Assembly: GCA_964016885.1 (NCBI GenBank)
Contig: OZ024764.1
Location: forward strand, 5,270,001 to 5,334,000
Length of the DNA stretch: 64,000 nt
Source of the DNA: Eledone cirrhosa
Lineage: Eukaryota
Reading direction: 5' to 3'
Part shown: positions 6,887-63,945 of the stretch, piece by piece
Layout: each line of letters begins with the position of its first letter
How positions within the stretch are numbered: the stretch's first letter is position 1
Program-made: the position numbers and the translations under genes
Notes under the pieces: model-generated
Database searches by the model: none
What the model was told of the DNA's origin: nothing
Seen by the model: only the letters and a program-made list of their open reading frames with translations

Positions 6887-6928
6887 GAGACTTGATATGG
6901 AGAGAGATCTTTTATACTTCGATTATAG
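6887..6928 (+). CDS. Candidate micro-exon, 42 nt, phase 2-2: RLDMERDLLYFDY
   Basis: tttaactatattttttgtaatcacAG|gaga...ttatag|GTAAGT. Length is divisible by 3. Phase 0 has TGA. Confidence 0.7.
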
Positions 6929-7041
6929 GTAAGTTTTAGTTTTACACACTATCTAACCTTTATACAATCTGCTCCTTCCCGTCTCTCTCTCTCTCTCTCT
7001 CTATTGCTCCAGTTTACTCAGCTGTAGAAATGAGATGATAG

Positions 7042-7074
7042 GATATGCTTCACTAATATAAAAAAGAAATTGAT
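7042..7074 (+). CDS. Candidate micro-exon or pseudo-exon, 33 nt, phase 2-2: ICFTNIKKKL; original acceptor replaced
   Basis: Paralog of the 24338-24367 exon (+3 nt) with an intact GTAAGT donor. Upstream is SINE-derived gagatgatAG with no adjacent pyrimidine tract. Confidence 0.45.
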
Positions 7075-9812: not shown

Positions 9813-9845
9813 CACCAATCATTCCTTCGCTTACAAGAAATTTAT
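9813..9845 (+). CDS. Candidate micro-exon, 33 nt, phase 2-2: TNHSFAYKKF
   Basis: tttaactatttttttctcattacAG|cacc...tttat|GTAAGT. Confidence 0.75.
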
Positions 9846-15197: not shown

Positions 15198-15239
15198 GAC
15201 TGATACAGAGGAGGGTACCGCTCCAGAAAATAATGACGA
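15198..15239 (+). CDS. Candidate micro-exon, 42 nt, phase 2-2: TDTEEGTAPENND
   Basis: attttttgtaatcacAG|gact...gacga|GTAAGT. Phase 0 is closed. Confidence 0.72.
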
Positions 15240-15551: not shown

Positions 15552-15596
<45 letters not shown>

Positions 15597-15815
15597 TAAG
15601 TTAAAAATGTACATTTACATATGCATACTGAAATACTAGTGTGTATATGAATACACACACGTATACATATGTAGGTGTAACAAGTCTTTCACTGGTTGCT
15701 TTACTGTGAGCAACCCAGCTATTCCGTATGTAAACACACAGACAAACCGGTTTTTAGAGTCATACTGGTTTTCGGGGGAACACCTTCCCTCTATTCTCCA
15801 GAAAGTCAGACAAGG

Positions 15816-15860
15816 AATATTGAACTAGTTTCGTTGTTGTTACAACTCATCAGCAATATT
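15816..15860 (-). ncRNA. Minimal type I hammerhead ribozyme motif
   Basis: Reverse complement of the 16546-16590 motif. Confidence 0.75.
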
Positions 15861-16545
15861 TACCTATCTACCGGCCCCTCTGGAGAATTGTAAAAGCACA
15901 TATCGTTATATGCTTTTTCTATGAAAATTAGTAGTGGGCAGACTAATTTGCATAGAGTGTGAGTACGCACCGGTTCAGCGGAGACGATAAAAACAAATAA
16001 CAAAACGAAATTAAATTTCGTTTCGTTTGTAACTCACTTTTGTATGACTGACGCTTAAACAATTAAGTTAAAAATGTACATCTACATATGCATACTGAAA
16101 TACTAGTGTGTATATGAATACACACACGTATACATATGTAGGTGTAACAAGTCTTTCACTGGTTGCTTTACTGTGAGCAACCCAGCTATTTTGTATGTAA
16201 ACACACAGACAAACCGGTAGCTGGGTTGCTCACAGTAAAGCAACCAGTGAAAGACTTGTTACACCTACATATGTATACGTGTGTGTATTCATATACACAC
16301 TAGTATTTCAGTATGCATATGTAGATGTACATTTTTAACTTAATTATTTAAGCGTCAGTCATACAAAAGTGAGTTACAAACGAAACAAAATTTAATTTCG
16401 TTTTGTTATTTGTTTTTATCGTCTCCGCTGAACCGGTGCGTACTCACACTCTATGCAAATTAGTCTGCCCACTACTAATTTTCATAGAAAAAGCATATAA
16501 CGATATGTGCTTTTACAATTCTCCAGAGGGGCCGGTAGATAGGTA

Positions 16546-16590
16546 AATATTGCTGATGAGTTGTAACAACAACGAAACTAGTTCAATATT
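16546..16590 (+). ncRNA. Minimal type I hammerhead ribozyme motif
   Basis: AATATTG-CTGATGA-GTTG(taacaa)CAAC-GAAA-CTAG-TT-CAATATT: 7-bp stem I, intact core, 4-bp stem II, palindromic minimal stem III and a GUU cleavage triplet. Confidence 0.78.
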
Positions 16591-17012
16591 CCTTGTCTGG
16601 CTTTCTGGAGAATAGAGGGAAGGTGTTCCCCCGAAAACCAGTATGACTCTAAAAACCGGTTTGTCTGTGTGTTTACATACAAAATAGCTGGGTTGCTCAC
16701 AGTAAAGCAACCAGTGAAAGACTTGTTACACCTACATATGTATACGTGTGTGTATTCATATACACACTAGTATTTCAGTATGCATATGTAGATGTACATT
16801 TTTAACTTAATTGTTTAAGCGTCAGTCATACAAAAGTGAGTTACAAACGAAACGAAATTTAATTTCGTTTTGTTATTTGTTTTTATCGTCTCCGCTGAAC
16901 CGGTGCGTACTCACACTCTATGCAAATTAGTCTGCCCACTACTAATTTTCATAGAAAAAGCATATAACGATATGTGCTTTTACAATTCTCCAGAGGGGCC
17001 GGTAGATAGGTA

Positions 17013-17057
17013 AATATTGCTGATGAGTTGTAACAACAACGAAACTAGTTCAATATT
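17013..17057 (+). ncRNA. Minimal type I hammerhead ribozyme motif (467 bp after the previous copy)
   Basis: Identical to 16546-16590. Confidence 0.78.
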
Positions 17058-17389
17058 CCTTGTCTGGCTTTCTGGAGAATAGAGGGAAGGTGTTCCCCCG
17101 AAAACCAGTATGACTCTAAAAACCGGTTTGTCTGTGTGTTTACATACGGAATAGCTGGGTTGCTCACAGTAAAGCAACCAGTGAAAGACTTGTTACACCT
17201 ACATATGTATACGTGTGTGTATTCATATACACACTAGTATTTCAGTATGCATATGTAGATGTACATTTTTAACTTAATTGTTTAAGCGTCAGTCATACAA
17301 AAGTGAGTTACAAACGAAACGAAATTTAATTTCGTTTTGTTATTTGTTTTTATATATATATATATATATATATGACTCTGTCTCTTATA

Positions 17390-19476: not shown

Positions 19477-20840
19477 TATAGGGTAGGTTACCATAGGGCA
19501 GGTTACTGTAGGGTAGGATACTGTCTGGTAGGTTACCATAGGGTAGGTTACTGTAGGGTAGGTTACTGTAGTGTAGGTTACTGTAGGGTAGGTTACTATA
19601 GGGTAGGTTACTGTAGGGTAGATTACTCTAGGCTAGGTTACCATAGGGTAGGTTACTGTAGTGTAGGTTACCATAGGGTAGGTTACCACAGAGTAGGTGA
19701 CCATAGGGTATGTTATTATAGGGTAGGTAACTGTAGGTTAGGTTACTGTAGGGTAGGTTACCTTATGGTAAGTTACTATAGGGTAGGTTACCATAGTGTA
19801 GGTTACCTTATGGTAAGTTACTATAGGGTAGGTTACCATAGGGTAGGTTACCTTATGGTAGGTTACTTTATGGTAAGTTACTATAGGGTAGGTTACCATA
19901 GGGTAGGTTACCTTATGGTAAGTTACTATAGGGTAGGTTACCATAGTGTAGGTTACCTTATGGTAAGTTACTATAGGGTAGGTTACCATAGGGTAGGTTA
20001 CCTTAGTGTAGGTAAGAATAGGGTAGGTTACCATAGGTTAGGTTACTGTAGGGTAGGTTAGCATAAGGTAGGTTACCATAGGGTAGGTTACTGTAGGGTA
20101 GGTTACCATAGGGTAGGTTACTGTAGGTAGGTTACCGTAGGTTAGGTTACTGTAGGGTAGGTTAACATAGGGTTGGTTACCATAGGTTAAGTTCATATAG
20201 GTTGTTACCATATGGTAGGTTACTGTAGGGTAGGTTGCTATAGGGTAGGTTATCGTAGAGTAGGTTACCATAAGGTAGGTTACCGTAGGGTAGGTTACTA
20301 TAGGGTAGGGTATCATAGGATAGGTTACCATAAGGCAGGTTACCATAGAGTAGGTTACCTTAGGGTAGTTTACTATAAGATAGGTTACCATAGTGTAGCT
20401 TACCATAGGGTAGGTTGTTACCATAGGCAAGGTTACTATAGGGTGGGTTACCATAGGGTAGTTTATGATATGGTTGGTTACCATAGTGTAGGTTACTATA
20501 ACATAGGTTACCATAGTGTAGGATACCTTAGATTAGGTTACCACAGGATAGGTTACTGTAGGTTAGGTTACCATAGGTTAGGTTAGCAATGGGTAGGTTA
20601 CTATAGGTTGTTACCATAAGGTAGGTTACTGTATGGTGGGTTACCATAGGGTAGGGTACCATAAAGTAGGTTATTATAGTGTAGGTTACCTTAGGATAGG
20701 TAACCATAGGGTAGGTTACTATGGGGTAAGTTACCATAGGGTAGGTTCCCATAGGGTAGGTTAACATAAGCTAGGTTACCTCAGGGTAGGTTACCATACC
20801 ATAAAGTAGGTTACCATAGGTTTGTTAAGGTTAGGCTAGG
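19477..20840. repeat. 15-bp minisatellite (second block in this unit at ~22306-22837)
   Basis: Direct reading. Confidence 0.97.
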
Positions 20841-22306: not shown

Positions 22307-22984
22307 ATAGGTTACCATTGGGTAGGTTACTGTAGGGTAGGGTACCATAGGGTGGGTTACCATAGCGTAGGTTACTGAATGGTAGGTTACATTTCGTTAG
22401 GTTACTGTAGGGTAGGTTACCATAGGGTAGGTTACCATAGGGTGGGTTACCATAGGGTAGGTTATTGTAGGGTAGGTTACCATAGGGTAGTTATGTAGGG
22501 TAGGTTACCATAGTGTAGGTTATGTAGGGTAGGTTACCATAGAGTAGGATACTGTAGGGTAGGTTACCATAGGGTAGTTATGTAGGGTAGGTTACCATAG
22601 TGTAGGTTACTGTAGGGTAGGTTACCATAGAGTAGGATACTGTAGGGTAGGTTACCATAGGTTATGTCACTGTAGGGTAGGTTACCATAGGGTAGGTTAT
22701 TATAGGGTAGGTTACCATAGGTTAGGTTACTATAGGGTTGGTTGCCATAGGGTATGTTACCATAGGGTAGGTTACTATAAGGTAGGTTACCATACCATAG
22801 GTTAGGTTACCATATGTTTGTTAAGGTTAGGCTAGGCTGGTTTACTCGGTGAGTTAAAACTCACTTGCGACTGTAGTGTTTTAGAAGAAGTGTCTTAATC
22901 TTTAGTGCGCCACTAAATTTTTTAACTATTTCCCCTGAAACTGCCTTATTTTTTGGGTGTCGTCTTATGAATCGAATAGTGTCG

Positions 22985-24337: not shown

Positions 24338-24367
24338 GATATGCTTCACTAATATAAAGAAATTGAT
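24338..24367 (+). CDS. Candidate micro-exon, 30 nt, phase 2-2: ICFTNIKKL
   Basis: tatttttctcattacAG|gata...ttgat|GTAAGT. Phases 0 and 1 both contain TAA, so only phase 2 is open. Confidence 0.75.
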
Positions 24368-27062: not shown

Positions 27063-27095
27063 CACCAAACCCTTTACCAAGTACGAGAATATTAT
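27063..27095 (+). CDS. Candidate micro-exon, 33 nt, phase 2-2: TKPFTKYENI
   Basis: ttttctcattacAG|cacc...attat|GTAAGT. Confidence 0.75.
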
Positions 27096-28875: not shown

Positions 28876-28917
28876 GACTGATACAGAGGAGGGTACCGCT
28901 CCAGAAAATAATGACGA
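28876..28917 (+). CDS. Candidate micro-exon, 42 nt, phase 2-2: TDTEEGTAPENND
   Basis: Identical to 15198-15239 with the same splice signals. Confidence 0.72.
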
Positions 28918-31338: not shown

Positions 31339-32627
31339 TATAGGGTAGGTTACCATACGGTAGGGTACTGTAGGGCAGGTTACCATAGGGCAGGTTACTG
31401 TAGGGTAGGATACTGTCTGGTAGGTTACCATAGGGTAGGTTACTGTAGGGTAGGTTACCTTGGGTAGGTTACTGTAGTGTAGGTTACTGTAGGGTAGGTT
31501 ACTGTATGGTAGATTACTCTAGGCTAGGTTACCATAGGGTAGGTTACTGTAGTGTAGGTTACCATAGGGTAGGTTACCACAGAGTAGGTTACCTTATGGT
31601 AGGTTACCTTATGGTAGGTTACCATAGGGTAGGTTACCTTATGGTAAGTTACTATAGGGTAGGTTACCATAGTGTAGGTTACCTTATGGTAAGTTACTAT
31701 AGGGTAGGTTACCATAGGGTAGGTTACCTTAGTGTAGGTGAGAATAGGGTAGGTTACCATAGGTTAGGTTACTGTAGGGTAGGTTACCATAAGGTAGGTT
31801 ACTGTAGGGTAGGTTACCATAGGGTAGGTTACTGTAGGGTAGGTTACCATAGGGTAGGTTACCATAGGGTAGTTTACCGTAGGTTAGGTTACTGTAGGGT
31901 AGTTTACCGTAGGTTAGGTTACTGTAGGGTAGGTTAACATAGGGTATGTTAGCATAGGGTTGGTTACCATAGGTTAAGTTCATATAGGTTGTTACCATAT
32001 GGTAGGTTACTGTAGGGTAGGTTGCTATAGGGTAGGTTATCGTAGAGTAGGTTACTATAAGGTAGGTTACCATAAGGTAGGTTACCGTAGGGTAGGTTAC
32101 TATAGGGTAGGGTATCATAGGATAGGTTACCATAAGGCAGGTTACCATAGAGTAGGTTACCTTAGGGTAGTTTACTATAAGATAGGTTACCATAGTGTAG
32201 CTTACCATAGGGTAGGTTGTTACCATAGGCAAGGTTACTATAGGGTGGGTTACCATAGGGTAGTTTATGATATGGTTGGTTACCATAGTGTAGGTTACTA
32301 TAACATAGGTTACCATAGTGTAGGATACCTTAGATTAGGTTACTGTAGGTTAGGTTACCATATGGTAGGTTACCATAGGTTAGGTTAGCAATGGGTAGGT
32401 TACTATAGGTTGTTACTGTATGGTGGGTTACCATAGGGTAGGGTACCATAAAGTAGGTTATTATAGTGTAGGTTACCTTAGGATAGGTAACCATAGGGTA
32501 GGTTACTATGGGGTAAGTTACCATAGGGTAGGTTCCCATAGGGTAGGTTAACATAAGCTAGGTTACCTCAGGGTAGGTTACCATACCATAAAGTAGGTTA
32601 CCATAGGTTTGTTAAGGTTAGGCTAGG
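31339..32627. repeat. 15-bp minisatellite (second block at ~34093-34624)
   Basis: Direct reading. Confidence 0.97.
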
Positions 32628-35600
32628 CTGGTCTACTCGGTGAGTTAAAACTCACTTGTGACTGTAGTGTTTTAGAAGTGTCTCAATCTTTCATGCACCA
32701 CTAAATTTTTTAACTATTTCCCCTGAAACTGCCTTATTTTTGGGGGTCATCTTATCAATCGAATAGCGTCCTAAATCTAAATTATACTTCAGAATTTTAG
32801 GGGCCGACTTATGTACCGGATAGACTTGTACACCGGCATATATGGTATATATATATATATGCATGGAGGCACATGGCTTAGTGGTTAGAGCATTGGTCAT
32901 GCAATCGAAAGGTTGTGAGTTCAATTCTCAGACCGGGTGATGTGTTGGTTCCTTGAGCAAGACACTTTATTTCACATTGCTCCAGTTTACTCAGCTGTAG
33001 AAATGAGATGATAGGGACTGGGGTCCCTATCATTCCACTGCAAAGTGGTCGTGGAGGTGCCACGGCAAAAAAAGCACCCAGCACTCACTGTAAATGAGGT
33101 TGGTGACAGGAAGGGCATACAGCTGTAGAAATCAAGCCAGAATCAGTTCCCGTCCCGCCCTTGCAAGCAGGGAAAAGTGGACGTAAAATGAAATGATGAA
33201 AGAGAGATAGAGAGAAAGAGAGGGAGTGAGAGAGATACATTAAAACAATAACAGAAGGTCTGACTGGAGAATTTACTTTAGAATTCCTTCACGGAAATGT
33301 CTTATTTATCTGTAACACAAACTTCAAAAAACAAGACAACCACTTAATAACCGATAGATCAAGTGAGCCCTCCAGCTAGATAGATTTCATTGTTACCAGA
33401 AGACAGAGTGACTGTTATAAACACAAAGTCCTTCCCTAGTGAAGAATGCACCTCCCAACATACCTTAGAATACAACCTGGAAGAAAAGAGTATAGATCAA
33501 AATCAAAAGGTCTTAAAGTCAATTTGGTAAAGACTAAAGTTCTAGTAAGTAGAAAGGAAAACTGGGCCCAGATCTCTTCAGGTAAACTGTCCTGCTCAGT
33601 GGGCAGAAAAGGAGTAGGTAGAAATTCCATCCTATGTCCCATATAGAAATGATGGGTACACAAAAGATGTTGTGGGATCTCAGGAAGGCTAACAAAGAAC
33701 GTAGCTTCTATATGTGGCCAGTGAACAGGGGCAGGAAATATCAAGAGCTCTCGAGTTACAATCTCCTTCAAATGCCCAGAAGTCTCTGCAGAGGTGGTAG
33801 ATAGTTTCTGTTACTTAGGTGACTAAATCAGCAGTGGAGGAGGGTGGTCCAAAAACTCAGTAACAAGAGTGAGATTAGATTGGAGAAAGTGCAGGGATCT
33901 ACTACTACTGCTAACTACAAAACATTTTTCCATCAAAATGAAGGGCAGACTGTATGATGCAGGTATACAAACAACAATGTTGCACAGCAGCGAGACCTGG
34001 GCACTGTGTGTAGAAGATCTGTAAAGATTGGAAAGAAATGAAGCCTCCATGCTTCAATGGATGTGCCATAGTAATATATGCAAATGGCAAAACATAGGTT
34101 ACCATTGGGTAGGTTACTGTAGGGTAGGATACCATAGGGTGGGTTACCATAGCGTAGGTTACTGAATGGTAGGTTACATTTCGTTAGGTTACTGTAGGGT
34201 CGGTTACCATAGGGTAGGTTACCATAGGGTGGGTTACCATAGGGTAGGTTACTGTAGGGTAGGTTACCATAGGGTAGTTATGTAGGGTAGGTTACCATAG
34301 TGTAGGTTACTGTAGGGTAGGTTACCATAGAGTAGGATACTGTAGGGTAGGTTACCATAGGGTAGTTATGTAGGGTAGGTTACCATAGTGTAGGTTACTG
34401 TAGGGTAGGTTACCATAGAGTAGGATACTGTAGGGTAGGTTACCATAGGTTAGGTCACTGTAGGGTAGGTTACCATAGGGTAGGTTATTATAGGGTAGGT
34501 TACCATAGGTTAGGTTACTATAGGGTTGGTTGCCATAGGGTATGTTACCATAGGGTAGGTTACTATAAGGTAGGTTACCATACCATAGGTTAGGTTACCA
34601 TATGTTTGTTAAGGTTAGGCTAGGCTGGTTTACTCGGTGAGTTAAAACTCACTTGCGACTGTAGTGTTTTAGAAGAAGTGTCTTAATCTTTAGTGCGCCA
34701 CTAAATTTTTTAACTATTTCCCCTGAAACTGCCTTATTTTTTGGGTGTCGTCTTATGAATCGAATAGTGTCGTATAGGACTATCTGGCATGTTTTCTATG
34801 GCTGGATGGCCTTCCTAACACCAACCACGTTTACAGTGTGGGGACTGGGAGGTTTTTACCATGTTAACTACACGGCCAATTTACAGCGTGGACTGTGTGT
34901 TTTATTGTCATGACACCTACACAACCTCATTTATTTAGGACCTGATGTTGTGTGACCAACATAATTTTACAGAGATGGGGGTGGGAGTAGTGGGGTGGGG
35001 GCGTATATTTGGTTAAGAGGTGCCTACTGACTGTAGGTTTCGCTTTGTACTTAGGCAAGGGTGGTCTTCTGTATTACTGCGTAGCGCCAAAGATCTCGGT
35101 CCAGTGACATTGTCTTGGAGAGGTGTAAGTGTGTGAGATCGGAATTTATCAATTCGTCCCAGGGTTTTCTGGGTCTGCCTACTCCGTGGCTACCATCTAT
35201 TTTGATCGCCCTGCACTTTTTTATACAGCTGTCGTCTTTCATGCGCATCACGTGACCATACCAACGTAGTCTTCTCTCGAGTAAACAACATCTGATCCCT
35301 CTTATTCCTAATTTCTCACTTAGTTCATTTATGCTTTGCCGTTCACGTATATTACTATTACACATCCAGCGGAGCATGCAAACTTCATTCCTCTCCAGTC
35401 TGCGTATATCCTCTGCACACAATGCCCAAGTCTCACTGCCATGTAACATTGTTGTTCGTATGCAGGCATCATACAGCCTGCCTTTCATTTTTAGAGAGAA
35501 CCCTTTAGCGGCCAATCGTACAATGAAAAGAGCGTCTGTGATACTTTAACCTGACACAAACCCAAACTGCATTTCATCTAGATCAATTCTCTCTCTGATT

Positions 35601-36122
35601 AGTTGCGCTATTACTTTTTCTGTGACCCTCATGAACTGGTCAATTAATTTAATGCCTCTATAGTTTCCCCTATCTAGGGCATCTCCTTTACCCTTGTAGC
35701 AGTTAATGATGATGATATATATATAAAAGAAATAGGATTTCGCTTCAAGCATATCTTTATACAATATGTATAAATATTTTGTATCTCCAAAGAAATACGG
35801 TTTTAGGAAGCCTTAGCTCTGCAAACCCTGGGGGCTAACGTCCTCTGGTGATGTCCAGCAGAAGCAAAGGGGACAACCGTCTATCCATTTCAGGCTTAAC
35901 TGGCCATCGTCAGGACAGTCCCTCCCACTGCTTGCGACTGCTGGCCAGTTAAGCATGAAATGCATAGACGGTTGTCCCCCTTGCTTCTGCTGGACATTAC
36001 CAGAGGCCTTGAAACCCTAAGTCCCTTTTGTTCTGTGTATGAACAGAAATAAATAATGTAATATATATATATGTATGTGTGTGTATCTATTTATATATTT
36101 AACTATATGTTTCTCATTACAG

Positions 36123-36200
36123 GAACACCACTAATTTCTCCGAAAAATTTATTACTTCTCTCCTATGCAACCTTCCCTCCAATGATTACAGTAAATTTAT
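36123..36200 (+). CDS. Candidate compound exon, 78 nt, phase 2-2: NTTNFSEKFITSLLCNLPSNDYSKF
   Basis: ttctcattacAG|gaac...tttat|GTAAGT. The first 30 nt match the 51598 exon (1 difference) and the last 33 nt resemble the 9813 exon. Confidence 0.72.
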
Positions 36201-37056
36201 GTAAGTGTTACCTTAACATACTGTCTAACCATTGTTTAATCTGCTCCTCCCTCTACCTCTCCCTTTATACACACACACACATATATACCCCTATATATAT
36301 ATGTATACACACACACACACAAATATATACACATATATACATATATATATACACACATATATATATAATCACATATATATATACATATATACAAGCGAGA
36401 CACGGCCTGCTGACCAATCTCGCCTTAAGTGGGACAAAACCGTCCAACCCATGCTAGCATGGAAGATGGACTTTAAATGATGATGATATATACACACTGA
36501 CACATATATATATACATATATATATACACATATATATACGCATATATTTATATATATATATGAGTTCAAGTCCGCCGAGGTTAACTTTGCCTTTCATCTT
36601 TACGAGTCGATAAAATAAAGTACCAGTGGTGTACTGGGGTAATCGCTGGCCTTGTGCCAAAAGTAGAAACTATATTTATATATATATATATATAACCAAA
36701 GATTAATATGGTTTGTTGATTACTTAATGAATACAGTTTTGCAATAGATTAGAAGCACTCAACAGTGAAAGTTTTCCTGGACTTTTTAATATTAACAAAT
36801 GAAAAATATTCTCATAATCAAAATATATACTTTATTATATACATTTCAAAGGTATATGACATACCTCTACGGTCTTGATTCTTCAATTCCAGTATTGCAG
36901 TCACTGCCAATACTGGAATTGAAGAATCAAGACCGTAGCGCTATGTCATAATCATATATTTTGTCTGATGAGGACGTACTGAAAAAACAACAATATATAT
37001 AATATAGTATATATTTTGATTATGCGAATATTTTTCATTTGTTAACATTTTGAATA

Positions 37057-38890: not shown

Positions 38891-38920
38891 TCCAACAGCT
38901 ACTACTTCCCTGAAATTTAT
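38891..38920 (+). CDS. Candidate micro-exon, 30 nt, phase 2-2: PTATTSLKF
   Basis: tttttttctcattacAG|tcca...tttat|GTAAGT. Phase 1 has TGA. Confidence 0.75.
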
Positions 38921-44257: not shown

Positions 44258-44299
44258 GACTGATACAGAGGAGGGTACCGCTCCAGAAAATAATGACGA
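44258..44299 (+). CDS. Candidate micro-exon, 42 nt, phase 2-2: TDTEEGTAPENND
   Basis: Identical to 15198-15239 with the same splice signals. Confidence 0.72.
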
Positions 44300-46754: not shown

Positions 46755-48219
46755 TATAGGGTAGGTTACCATACGGTAGGGTACTGTAGGGTAGGTTACC
46801 ATAGGGCAGGTTACTGTAGGGTAGGATACTGTCTGGTAGGTTACCATAGGGTAGGTTACTGTAGGGTAGGTTACTATAGGGTAGGTTACCTTGGGTAGGT
46901 TACTGTAGTGTAGGTTACTGTAGGGTAGGTTACTATAGGGTAGGTTACTGTAGGGTAGATTACTCTAGGCTAGGTTACCATAGGGTAGGTTACTGTAGTG
47001 TAGGTTACCATAGGGTAGGTTACCACAGAGTAGGTGACCATAGGGTATGTTATTATAGGGTAGGTAACTGTAGGTTAGGTTACTGTAGGGTAGGTTACCT
47101 TATGGTAAGTTACTATAGGGTAGGTTACCATAGTGTAGGTTACCTTATGGTAAGTTACTATAGGGTAGGTTACCATAGGGTAGGTTACCTTATGGTAGGT
47201 TACCTTATGGTAAGTTACTATAGGGTAGGTTACCATAGGGTAGGTTACCTTATGGTAAGTTACTATAGGGTAGGTTACCATAGTGTAGGTTACCTTATGG
47301 TAAGTTACTATAGGGTAGGTTACCATAGGGTAGGTTACCTTAGTGTAGGTAAGAATAGGGTAGGTTACCATAGGTTAGGTTACTGTAGGGTAGGTTACCA
47401 TAAGGTAGGTTACTGTAGGGTAGGTTACCATAGGGTAGGTTACTGTAGGGTAGGTTACCATAGGGTAGGTTACTGTAGGTAGGTTACCATAGGGTAGTTT
47501 ACCGTAGGTTAGGTTACTGTAGGGTAGGTTAACATAGGGTATGTTAGCATAGGGTTGGTTACCATAGGTTAAGTTCATATAGGTTGTTACCATATGGTAG
47601 GTTACTGTAGGGTAGGTTGCTATAGGGTAGGTTATCGTAGAGTAGGTTACTATAAGGTAGGTTACCATAAGGTAGGTTACCGTAGGGTAGGTTACTATAG
47701 GGTAGGGTATCATAGGATAGGTTACCATAAGGCAGGTTACCATAGAGTAGGTTACCTTAGGGTAGTTTACTATAAGATAGGTTACCATAGTGTAGCTTAC
47801 CATAGGGTAGGTTATCATAGGCAAGGTTACTATAGGGTGGGTTACCATAGGGTAGTTTATGATATGGTTGGTTACCATAGTGTAGGTTACTATAACATAG
47901 GTTACCATAGTGTAGGATACCTTAGATTAGGTTACCACAGGATAGGTTACTGTAGGTTAGGTTACCATAGGTTAGGTTAGCAATGGGTAGGTTACTATAG
48001 GTTGTTACCATAAGGTAGGTTACTGTATGGTGGGTTACCATAGGGTAGGGTACCATAAAGTAGGTTATTATAGTGTAGGTTACCTTAGGATAGGTAACCA
48101 TAGGGTAGGTTACTATGGGGTAAGTTACCATAGGGTAGGTTCCCATAGGGTAGGTTACCTCAGGGTAGGTTACCATACCATAAAGTAGGTTACCATAGGT
48201 TTGTTAAGGTTAGGCTAGG
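46755..48219. repeat. 15-bp minisatellite (second block at ~49685-50098)
   Basis: Direct reading. Confidence 0.97.
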
Positions 48220-51200
48220 CTGGTCTACTCGGTGAGTTAAAACTCACTTGTGACTGTAGTGTTTTAGAAGTGTCTCAATCTTTCATGCACCACTAAATTT
48301 TTTAACTATTACCCCTGAAACTGCCTTATTTTTGGGGGTCATCTTATCAATCGAATAGCGTCCTAAATCTAAATTATACTTCAGAATTTTAGGGGCCGAC
48401 TTATGTACCGGATAGACTTGTACACCGGCATATATGGTATATATATATATATGCATGGAGGCACATGGCTTAGTGGTTAGAGCATTGGTCATGCAATCGA
48501 AAGGTTGTGAGTTCAATTCTCAGACCGGGTGATGTGTTGGTTCCTTGAGCAAGACACTTTATTTCACATTGCTCCAGTTTACTCAGCTGTAGAAATGAGA
48601 TGATAGGGACTGGGGTCCCTATCATTCCACTGCAAAGTGGTCGTGGAGGTGCCACGGCAAAAAAAGCACCCAGCACTCACTGTAAATGAGGTTGGTGACA
48701 GGAAGGGCATACAGCTGTAGAAATCAAGCCAGAATCAGTTCCCGTCCCGCCCTTGCAAGCAGGGAAAAGTGGACGTAAAATGAAATGATGAAAGAGAGAT
48801 AGAGAGAAAGAGAGGGAGTGAGAGAGATACATTAAAACAATAACAGAAGGTCTGACTGGAGAATTTACTTTAGAATTCCTTCACGGAAATGTCTTATTTA
48901 TCTGTAACACAAACTTCAAAAAACAAGACAACCACTTAATAACCGATAGATCAAGTGAGCCCTCCAGCTAGATAGATTTCATTGTTACCAGAAGACAGAG
49001 TGACTGTTATAAACACAAAGTCCCTCCCTAGTGAAGAATGCACCTCCCAAAATACCTTAGAATACAACCTGGAAGAAAAGAGTATAGATCAAAATCAAAA
49101 GGTCTTAAAGTCAATTTGGTAAAGACTAAAGTTCTAGTAAGTAGAAAGGAAAACAGGGCCCAGATCTCTTCAGGTAAACTGTCCTGCTCAGTGTGCAGAA
49201 AAGGAGTAGGTAGAAATTCCATCCTATGTCCCATATAGAAATGATGGGTACACAAAAGATGTCGTGGGATCTCAGGGAGGCTAACAAAGAACGTAGCTTC
49301 TACATGTGGCCAGTGAACAGGGGCAGGAAATATCAAGAGCTCTCGAGTTACAATCTCCTTCAAATGCCCAGAAGTCTCTGCAGAGGTGGTAGATAGTTTC
49401 TGTTACCTAGGTGACTAAATCAGCAGTGGAGGAGGGTGGTCCAAAAACTCAGTAACAAGAGTGAGATTAGATTGGAGAAAGTGCAGGGATCTACTACTAC
49501 TGCTAACTACAAAACATTTTTCCATCAAAATGAAGGGCAGACTGTATGATGCAGGTATACAAACAACAATGTTGCACAGCAGCGAGACCTGGGCACTGTG
49601 TGTAGAAGATCTGTAAAGATTGGAAAGAAATGAAGCCTCCATGCTTCAATGGATGTGCCATAGTAATATATGCAAATGGCAAAACATAGGTTACCATTGG
49701 GTAGGTTACTGTAGGGTAGGGTACCATAGGGTAGGTTACTGTATGGTAGGTTACATTTCGTTAGGTTACTGTAGGGTAGGTTACCATAGGGTGGGTTACC
49801 ATAGGGTAGGTTACTGTAGGGTAGGATACCATAGGGTAGTTATGTAGGGTAGGTTACCATAGTGTAGGTTACTGTAGGGTAGGTTACCATAGAGTAGGAT
49901 ACTGTAGGGTAGGTTACCATAGGTTAGGTCACTGTAGGGTAGGTTACCATAGGGTAGGTTATTATAGGGTAGGTTACCATAGGTTAGGTTACTATAGGGT
50001 TGGTTGCCATAGGGTATGTTACCATAGGGTAGGTTACTATAAGGTAGGTTACCATACCATAGGTTAGGTTACCATATGTTTGTTAAGGTTAGGCTAGGCT
50101 GGTTTACTCGGTGAGTTAAAACTCACTTGCGACTGTAGTGTTTTAGAAGAAGTGTCTTAATCTTTAGTGCGCCACTAAATTTTTTAACTATTTCCCCTGA
50201 AACTGCCTTATTTTTTGGGTGTCGTCTTATGAATCGAATAGTGTCGTATAGGACTATCTGGCATGTTTTCTATGGCTGGATGCCCTTCCTAACACCAACC
50301 ACGTTTACAGTGTGGGGACTGGGAGGTTTTTACCATGTTAACTACACGGCCAATTTACAGCGTGGACTGTGTGTTTTATTGTCATGAAACGTACACAACC
50401 TCATTTATTTAGGACTGGATGTTGTGTGACCAACATAATTTTACAGAGATGGGGGTGGGAGTAGTCGGGTGGGGGCGTATATTTGGTTAAGAGGTGCCTA
50501 CTGACTGTAGGTTTCGCTTTGTACTTAGGCAAGGGTGGTCTTCTGTATTACTGCGTCGCGCCAAAGATCTCGGTTCAGTGACATTGTCTTGGAGAGGTGT
50601 AAGTGTGTGAGATCGGAATTTATCAATTCGTCCCAGGGTTTTCTGGGTCTGCCTACTCCGTGGCTACCATCTATTTTGATCGCCCTGCACTTTTTTATAC
50701 AGCTGTCGTCTTTCTTGCGCATCACGTGACCATACCAACGTAGTCTTCTCTCGAGTAAACAACATCTGATCCCTCTTATTCCTAATTTCTCACTTAGTTC
50801 ATTTATGCTTTGCCGTTCACGTATATTACTATTACACATCCAGCGGAGCATGCAAACTTCATTCCTCTCCAGTCTGAGTATATCCTCTGCACACAATGCC
50901 CAAGTCTCACTGCCATGTAACATTGTTGTTCGTATGCAGGCATCATACAGCCTGCCTTTCATTTTTAGAGAGAACCCTTTAGCGGCCAATCGTACAATGA
51001 AAAGAGCGTCTGTGATACTTTTACCTGACACAAACCCAAACTGCATTTCATCTAGATCAATTCTCTCTCTGATTAGTTGCGCTATTACTTTTTCTGTGAC
51101 CCTCATGAACTGGTCAATTAATTTAATGCCTCTATAGTTTCCCCTATCTAGGGCATCTCCTTTACCCTTGTAGCAGTTAATGATGATGATATATATATAA

Positions 51201-51597: not shown

Positions 51598-51627
51598 GAA
51601 CACCACTAATTTCTCCGAAAAATGTAT
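51598..51627 (+). CDS. Candidate micro-exon, 30 nt, phase 2-2: NTTNFSEKC
   Basis: tatttttctcattacAG|gaac...tgtat|GTAAGT. Phase 0 has TAA. Confidence 0.75.
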
Positions 51628-54331: not shown

Positions 54332-54361
54332 TCCCACAACTACTACTTCCATGAAATTTAT
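54332..54361 (+). CDS. Candidate micro-exon, 30 nt, phase 2-2: PTTTTSMKF
   Basis: tttttttctcattacAG|tccc...tttat|GTAAGT. Phase 1 has TGA. Confidence 0.75.
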
Positions 54362-60499: not shown

Positions 60500-60541
60500 G
60501 ACTGATACAAAGGAGAGTACCGCTCTAGAAAAGAATGAGGA
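60500..60541 (+). CDS. Candidate micro-exon, 42 nt, phase 2-2: TDTKESTALEKNE
   Basis: tttaactatattttttgtaatcacAG|gact...gagga|GTAAGT. Phases 0 (TGA) and 1 (TAG) are closed. Confidence 0.75.
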
Positions 60542-62982: not shown

Positions 62983-63945
62983 TATAGGGTAGGATACTGT
63001 AGCGTAGGTTACCATAGGGCAAGTTACTGTAGGGTAGGTTACTATAGGGTAGGTTACCATAGGGTAGGTTACTGTCTGGTAGGTTACTGTAGGGTAGGTT
63101 ACTGTCTGGTAGGTTACCATAGGGTAGGTTACTGTATGGTAGGTTACTGTAGGGTAGGTTACTGTATGGTAGGTTACCATAGGGTAGGTTACTGTAGGTT
63201 AGGTTACTATAGGGTAGGTTGCGATAGGGTATGTGACCATAGCGTAGGTTACTATAGGGTAGGTTACCATAGGGTAGGTTACTACAGAGTAGGTTATTAT
63301 AGGGTAGGTTACCATAAGGTAGGTTATTATAGGGTAGGTTACCATAGGGTAGATTACTATAGTGTAGGTTACCATAGGGTAGGTTACCATAGGGTAAGTT
63401 AACTCAGGGTAGGTTACTATAGGGTAGGTTACCATGGGGTAGGTTACCATAGGCTATATTATCATATGGTAGGTTACGGTAGGGTAGGTTACTATAACAT
63501 AGGTTACCATAGGGTAGATTACTATAGGGTAGGTTACCATAGGGTAGGTTACCATGGGGTAGGTTACCATAGGCTATATTATCATATGGTAGGTTACTAT
63601 ACGGTAGGTTACTGTAGGGTAGGTTACCATAAGGTAGGTTACTGTAGGGTAGGTTACCATAGGGTAGGTTAAGGTAGGGTAGGTTACTATAACATAGGTT
63701 ACCATAGTGTAGATTACCTTAAATTAGGCTACCATAGGGTAGGTTACTATAACATAGGTTACCATAGTGTAGGTTACCATAGGGTGGCTTACCATGGGTT
63801 AGGTTACTATAGGGTTGGTTGCCATAGAGTAGGTTACCATGGAATAGGTTGCCATAGGGTATGTTACCATACCATAGGGCTGGTTATCATAGGGTAGGTT
63901 ATTATAAGGTAGGTTACCATATGTTTGTTAAGGTTAGGCTAGGCT
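62983..63945. repeat. 15-bp minisatellite, same variant order as 1478-2455
   Basis: Direct reading. ORF 62953-63180 equals ORF 1448-1675. Confidence 0.97.

Follow-up and report, generated by a model that had tools for sequence, protein, structure and literature searches.

A chimeric 78-nt micro-exon in an in-frame micro-exon array of Eledone cirrhosa and its probable origin by template switching between DNA slots

The micro-exon array and the protein it would encode

The window analyzed here is a 64,000-nt stretch of the 3.0-Gb Eledone cirrhosa genome (positions 5270001-5334000 of contig OZ024764.1, C25); positions below are those of the window unless given as contig positions. It lies within an array of micro-exons that spans contig positions 4871418-5399532 (~530 kb). 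Reading 604 kb around the window, we catalogued 103 slots with the standard upstream flank (49 of type A/B and 54 of type C) and four orphan A exons, and these 107 slots appear to belong to one gene. Besides the 78-nt exon described below, the slots of the window include the following.

6887..6928, + strand: 42-nt C-type slot, RLDMERDLLYFDY
7042..7074, + strand: orphan A-type exon; acceptor flank replaced by intron sequence, with a 3-nt AGG microhomology at the exon edge
9813..9845, + strand: B-type slot, TNHSFAYKKF
15198..15239, + strand: 42-nt C-type slot
24338..24367, + strand: A-type slot, ICFTNIKKL
27063..27095, + strand: B-type slot, TKPFTKYENI
28876..28917, + strand: 42-nt C-type slot
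38891..38920, + strand: B-type slot after the 78-nt exon, PTATTSLKF; still present 2.69 kb downstream
44258..44299, + strand: 42-nt C-type slot
51598..51627, + strand: stand-alone A-type slot, NTTNFSEKC
54332..54361, + strand: B-type slot, PTTTTSMKF
60500..60541, + strand: 42-nt C-type slot

The slots are 27, 30, 33, 36, 42, 57 or 78 nt long and comprise 55 distinct sequences. All 103 standard slots have a length divisible by three, and 96 of them carry a GTAAGT donor. The phase-2 frame was free of stops in every distinct exon (0/55, against 41/55 and 21/55 in the other frames), and none of the 5253 ordered slot pairs creates a stop at the junction, so that any slot can be joined in frame to any other. 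The slots are thus predicted to be small symmetric coding exons, which together could encode up to ~1378 aa in the 103 standard slots, and exon skipping among them would be possible. In the C slots at contig positions 5084624 and 4960709, the donor is dead (GA) or altered, which we take as a sign that single cassettes can drop out with the frame unharmed.

Downstream of the array lie four constant exons whose phases fit.

Contig 5413283-5413395: 113 nt (phase 2 to 1), the transmembrane exon
Contig 5429774-5429952: 179 nt
Contig 5432947-5433066: 120 nt
Contig 5434100-5434162: 63 nt

The 113-nt exon encodes a hydrophobic helix with a Kyte-Doolittle value of 2.9 over 19 aa (2.2-2.8 in three paralogs), and the array most likely encodes the N-terminal side of a single-pass membrane protein. 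Because basic residues precede the helix and the candidate first exon seems to lack a signal peptide, a type II topology is suggested; this exon, tentatively delimited at its in-frame donor, contains no hydrophobic stretch. The three exons past the transmembrane exon form an unnamed domain, and the 120-nt exon of one paralog shows frame-keeping deletions.

The paralogs lie on the same contig.

Contig 7.19-7.33 Mb, minus strand: 4 slots (+2 in a partial copy)
Contig 7.48-7.52 Mb: 1 slot
Contig 25.07-25.18 Mb: 9 slots

Between paralogs, the transmembrane exon diverges fast inside conserved flanks, and in two of them the last slot before the helix encodes basic residues and cysteines. No match to the 179- or 120-nt exon was found in the 24 kb behind the transmembrane exon of one paralog (Q). 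A 31-kb run of a 15-nt satellite occupies contig 7.262-7.293 Mb.

Pfam returned nothing significant for the 78-nt peptide or for three constant exons, a homolog search with two constant exons gave no match, and the Atlas search yielded nothing at 0.9 or above. A search of protein representatives produced two matches, both to unrelated repeat proteins. The tachykinin motif is F-x-G-L-M; a tachykinin-type precursor was dismissed, as no G-L-M-G motif occurs on either strand of 624 kb. We also discarded a TATA-like site at contig position 4854729, which sits in a repeat.

The slots encode low-structure peptides of 8-13 aa and not parts of Ig domains. The pattern Y-x-x-hydrophobic, which may act as a sorting or signalling motif, was present in 15 of the 31 distinct A/B peptides (4.4 expected by shuffling, the copies not being independent) and in none of the 19 C peptides. 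An N-x-S/T pattern was seen in 13/31 distinct A/B peptides, and the topology would decide which of the two motifs matters.

Anatomy and copies of the 78-nt exon

The 78-nt exon occupies 36123-36200, with a canonical acceptor upstream and GTAAGT following, and its phase-2 frame reads NTTNFSEKFITSLLCNLPSNDYSKF. Its parts and flanks are as follows.

36101..36122, + strand: acceptor flank of an A-type slot, with a one-base variant found in 5/5 78-nt slots and 0/44 other A/B slots
36123..36152, + strand: A-type module of 30 nt at full length, NTTNFSEKF, one base different from the stand-alone exon at 51598 (29/30)
36153..36154, + strand: TA, which with the preceding AT would form the first half of a probable acceptor remnant (ATTA/CAG)
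36155..36167, + strand: putative 13-nt locally templated insertion, an out-of-frame near-copy (11/13) of 36172-36184
36168..36170, + strand: CAA (CAG in 3/5 copies), either completing the putative acceptor remnant or opening a 33-nt B exon
36171..36200, + strand: B-type (DYKKF-family) module, LPSNDYSKF, without an exact stand-alone copy in the genome
36185..36191, + strand: internal acceptor-like ATTACAG, owed to a 2-base change private to this copy; possible in-frame 9-nt exon at 36192-36200
36201..36230, + strand: donor flank of A type (T at +19), the first 18 nt being common to A and B slots

The exon is chimeric, with one part from an A-type micro-exon and the other from a B-type micro-exon of the DYKKF family, in agreement with a first-pass annotation that had read the slot as fused micro-exons. 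That annotation had also seen that the first 30 nt repeat the exon at 51598 apart from one base and run into TAC instead of GT, and its assignment of the flanks to slot A holds both upstream and downstream. The last 33 nt are indeed B-type, but their closest stand-alone relatives turned out to be the NLLMIDYKKF exons (24/33 for the window copy, 26/33 for two other copies) and not TNHSFAYKKF, the exon originally named. An 8-nt repeat terminates both the A and the B module. Direct reading of the sequence showed that a donor kept after the A module would give ATG-TAA in frame and that only joins at or before about this point could survive as a long exon; for this reason, the exact end of the A module is weak evidence for splicing.

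A search of the genome returned five matches, all of them full-length 78-nt exons 87-96% identical to the window copy, so that the exon is neither a chance feature nor an assembly slip. The five copies lie on one contig between 4.95 and 5.31 Mb. The open 78-nt frame and the normal upstream acceptor are kept in 5/5, and A-type flanks border each copy up- and downstream. Since all five share an acceptor variant that is absent from the 44 other A/B slots, they descend from one event. The intron between A and B is retained in four of the five, with an A/B slot 2.69-2.75 kb downstream, and the intron was therefore not lost. Variable sites number 15/78 in the exon, 16 in 1499 upstream columns and 29 in 1389 downstream columns, and site patterns conflict over the root among the five copies.

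The AG at 36191 had been put forward as the acceptor of an in-frame 9-nt exon. The frame does hold, and a minor 9-nt form may be produced; the acceptor, however, owes its existence to a change of two bases (AAG to AGT) that the window copy alone carries (1/5 copies), so it leaves the family unexplained.

A hairpin (MITE-like) element lies at 35830-36020, ~100 nt upstream of A/B acceptors. In contigs of two sequence runs, of unrecorded kind, this hairpin is highly repeated, the donor flank is covered (36184-36262) and 36056-36183 is uncovered, which is neutral with regard to splicing.

The middle segment and the origin of the fusion

Between the modules, positions 36155-36167 match 36172-36184 at 11/13 (p 0.007, shuffling the middle). 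The same comparison gave 12/13 in the copy at contig position 5066424 (0/3000 shuffles) and a non-significant 7-8/13 in the other three copies (p 0.27-0.63). The source starts 4 nt past the end of the 13-mer, and at the resulting offset of 17 nt the two versions are read in different frames, which is not expected of a homologous exon.

Deleting the 13-mer brings ATTACAG together across the join in 3/5 copies (7/7) and ATTACAA in 2/5 (6/7), and ATTACAG is the ending of 47 of the 49 A/B acceptors. When the majority middle was shuffled, TACAG remained in 238 of 100000 cases (~0.2%), a value to be read as optimistic, as the joint shuffle tests of the remnant were designed after the data had been seen. 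Both copies in which the repeat matches best have CAA instead of CAG. When the unedited 18-nt middle was compared directly with the acceptor, none of the five copies showed a significant match (p 0.15-0.88).

The simplest account of this arrangement would be an A end, five acceptor bases and a 30-nt B exon, split by a frame-restoring 13-nt templated insertion. Alternatively, the last 33 nt can be parsed as an exon starting CAACC, like the NLLMIDYKKF exons (24-26/33); CA would then be exon and not acceptor, and only TA would be unexplained. This parse still leaves a 15-nt non-exon piece between the modules, and in both parses the middle appears to be a local copy and not a spliced exon.

The first-pass annotation had proposed to look for the pieces as separate exons bounded by AG and GT. 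In this genome, none was found for the 15-, 18- or 48-mer: the array and the 7.2-Mb paralog hold no such sequence between AG and GT at up to ~28% mismatch, slots of 15 or 48 nt are missing from the 103 catalogued, and a genome-wide search for the 15-mer between AG and a consensus donor gave no match. A looser 15-nt exon pattern fared no better than its control (eight matches each) and had none on the array contig; the five that were inspected proved to be a 21-nt satellite (four) and a repeat fragment (one). The core of the 3' module, allowing one mismatch, is present in four of the 78-mers and in one unrelated place, a one-mismatch match on another contig (C4) whose context is not exon-like. 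Among the fused pieces, the A module thus exists as a separate exon and the B module only as relatives matching at 24-26/33. Within this genome, the 3' 48 nt were thus not found as an independent exon, the outcome that the annotation had named as refuting its proposal, and the middle is better accounted for by a templated local duplication within an acceptor remnant.

These observations make it likely that the 78-nt exon arose by a microhomology-guided template switch between paralogous DNA slots, accompanied by a locally templated, frame-restoring insertion. We infer a one-time event at the DNA level, in which an A-type exon would have broken at its 3' end and a paralogous B-type slot would have served as the repair template. 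Priming would have started from the A end (...TTTAT), paired by a short microhomology with the B acceptor (..CAT/TACAG) or the bases beside it, and one aborted round of synthesis would have left the 13-nt copy of the 5' part of the B exon. After crossing the B exon, synthesis would have returned to the A slot on its donor side, by way of the exon end and the first 18 intron bases, in which A and B slots agree. The microhomology is only 2 nt (AT) at the 5' join, and at the 3' join it comprises the exon end common to A/B slots and 18 nt of intron; a DNA template offers this latter stretch, and a spliced cDNA does not. As 30 + 5 + 13 + 30 = 78 keeps the frame, the exon survived, and segmental duplication would have raised it to five copies that diverged inside the exon within flanks ~99% identical. 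It would presumably be spliced whole into the N-terminal part of the membrane protein.

The pathway would be Pol theta-like end joining or microhomology template switching; MMBIR, too, has reportedly been described with templated insertions (PMC8421209). Pol theta joining is described as leaving insertions of 3-30 bp that copy the adjacent DNA exactly (PMC7165422), and the 13 nt that repeat their neighbor here at 11/13 to 12/13 conform to this. As in the joins described there, a short direct repeat lies a few bases from the junction and the microhomology is short; here, in contrast, the insertion accompanies the capture of a paralogous exon, was kept and was amplified, and the enzyme is presumed. 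Repair scars of this sort are ordinary, but this one is well preserved.

The first-pass annotation had attributed the precise join to the write-back of a cDNA. A spliced mRNA, containing an A exon, a 15-nt exon and a B exon or else an A exon and a since-lost 48-nt exon, would have been reverse-transcribed by a retroelement enzyme and would have converted an A slot, with the AAATTTAT exon end as the shared point of resolution. Such a route would suit an A module complete to its last base, the end-to-end alignment of the last 33 nt with 33-nt stand-alone relatives and the 8-nt repeat at the ends of both modules, and introns here do contain reverse-transcriptase fragments (RVT_1 in 3/4 scanned ORFs, one above the curated cut-off). 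A lost 48-nt exon is conceivable given a DYKKF-family exon that starts with TAC (contig 5069195), and stand-alone donors are often lost in this array, the tail of the 57-nt slot described below also being without one. We nevertheless regard this origin as unlikely, as neither the catalogue nor the genome holds a 15- or 48-nt slot, the middle is an out-of-frame copy of its neighbor that hides an acceptor end, and the A flanks and the intron are kept. Moreover, 15-18 nt lie between the modules in place of a clean junction, the exact A end counts for little under the ATG-TAA constraint, and C+A or B+C fusions are absent among the 103 slots. End joining can also yield precise intron deletions (PMC3020277). 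The 78-nt exon resembles the intron losses treated there in placing two exons in one open frame, but the join is unclean and both the intron and the downstream slot remain, which points to exon capture; it lacks three marks of cDNA-mediated intron loss that were tested here.

The template switch must also be weighed against an origin in two DNA steps, in which a B exon grew to 48 nt by internal tandem duplication and a 2-nt loss and was later joined cleanly to an A end by deletion or conversion, the restored ATTACAG being coincidental. This would account jointly for the 17-nt repeat and the CAACC start without any need of RNA; it requires two separate events, however, leaves the TA + CAG match (~0.2% by shuffle) unexplained and finds no surviving 48-nt slot, and it strikes us as improbable. 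That the functional unit is a shorter exon, entered through the AG at 36191 or, in three other copies, through the CAG that precedes the final 30 nt, with a decayed upstream part, is very unlikely. Both internal acceptors keep the frame (9 and 30 nt) and have a pyrimidine-rich tract ahead of them, but they exist in 1/5 and 3/5 copies, respectively, against 5/5 for the upstream acceptor and the open 78-nt frame. Such shortened forms are silent on the origin of the exon and could coexist as minor alternative splicing.

Other slots of the array carry joins as well. A 57-nt slot, present in three copies (contig 4902087, 5229117 and 5252286), links 18 nt of an A exon to a 30-nt exon through 9 nt that end in ATTACAG, and its join matches the acceptor at 14/16. 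The four orphan A exons are attached to an intron element that continues differently after AGG in 26 other places. The 57-nt slot and the orphan exons are joins made in DNA at or near exon edges, which spliced cDNA could not have produced, and serve as precedents for the 78-nt fusion. The donor of the 57-nt slot is weakened by a 4-nt loss, and this slot may be spliced in at 57 nt, in a 30-nt form, or left out altogether. In the window (6887-7074) and at contig positions 5100139, 5338386 and 5355120, an orphan A exon lies 113 nt behind a C exon that is divergent and rich in tyrosine.

Exon-limited divergence and related systems

Divergence among the slots is confined to the exons, as has long been known from venom and recognition genes. 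Across 46 A/B slots (57-mers left out), diversity was low in the flanks (0.02 over the 40 nt that precede AG, 0.05 over the 50 nt starting at GT) and high in the exons (0.54 in the first and 0.30 in the last 14 bases), and it leaps from ~0 to ~0.6 at the first exon base. Codon changes in 35 nearest-neighbor pairs (55 non-synonymous, 13 synonymous) were near the 20% synonymous share expected at random, and substitutions were adjacent in 22/87 cases versus 11.0 expected (p 0.007). The pattern fits a homogenization of flanks by duplication and conversion from which the exons would escape, together with short tract replacements. A cDNA, which had been offered as a possible cause of the divergence, is not required under this explanation.

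It is rather unlikely, in our estimate, that the array is a cassette diversifier, in which error-prone and possibly RNA-guided or RNA-templated repair would rewrite only the bases from AG to GT while the flanks are held identical, and the 107 in-frame cassettes would be spliced together in combinations, giving a lineage-specific membrane protein a variable N-terminal tail rich in tyrosine motifs. We keep this reading because of the diversity jump at the first exon base, the clustered substitutions and the neutral synonymous share; if it held, the 78-nt exon would be one frozen product. With 107 slots in near-identical flanks and paralogs of one, four and nine slots, the locus allows selection plus flank homogenization to be tested against targeted mutation.

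A literature search, which missed most subscription papers, returned no description of such an array. In outline only, the array is similar to accelerated segment switch in exons (ASSET) of snake three-finger toxin genes, with its conserved introns and short exon segments swapped for unlike sequence (PMC2474615); ASSET acts between separate small genes, whereas the exchange here is between slots of one gene, with no hint of a toxin. The resemblance to Dscam arrays is equally one of outline: they hold dozens of tandem paralogous exons per gene, but these are mutually exclusive Ig pieces of 130-160 nt, among which one study detected no gene conversion (PMC3236188), in contrast to exons of 27-42 nt in nearly identical flanks here. 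With schistosome micro-exon genes, MEGs (PMC4350168; bioRxiv 10.1101/2023.06.21.545858), the array shares small symmetric exons, long introns, fast change and a transposon-rich setting. MEGs have 10-20 micro-exons and a signal peptide; the array here is far larger, with 107 slots whose duplicated flanks are near-identical along 530 kb, and it lies upstream of a transmembrane exon, so that the likeness is one of architecture. The fusion would show how paralogous micro-exon slots can give rise to new coding cassettes with no RNA intermediate, and the array is far more striking than the single 78-nt exon.

Every repeat unit contains 15-nt satellite arrays (1479-2431, 19478-20798, 22308-22794, 31340-32585, 34095-34582, 46756-48177, 49687-50056 and 62984-63921), which are possible sites of unequal exchange expanding the micro-exon array. 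A 467-nt tandem repeat with an inverted copy, 99% identical, lies at 15592-17353.
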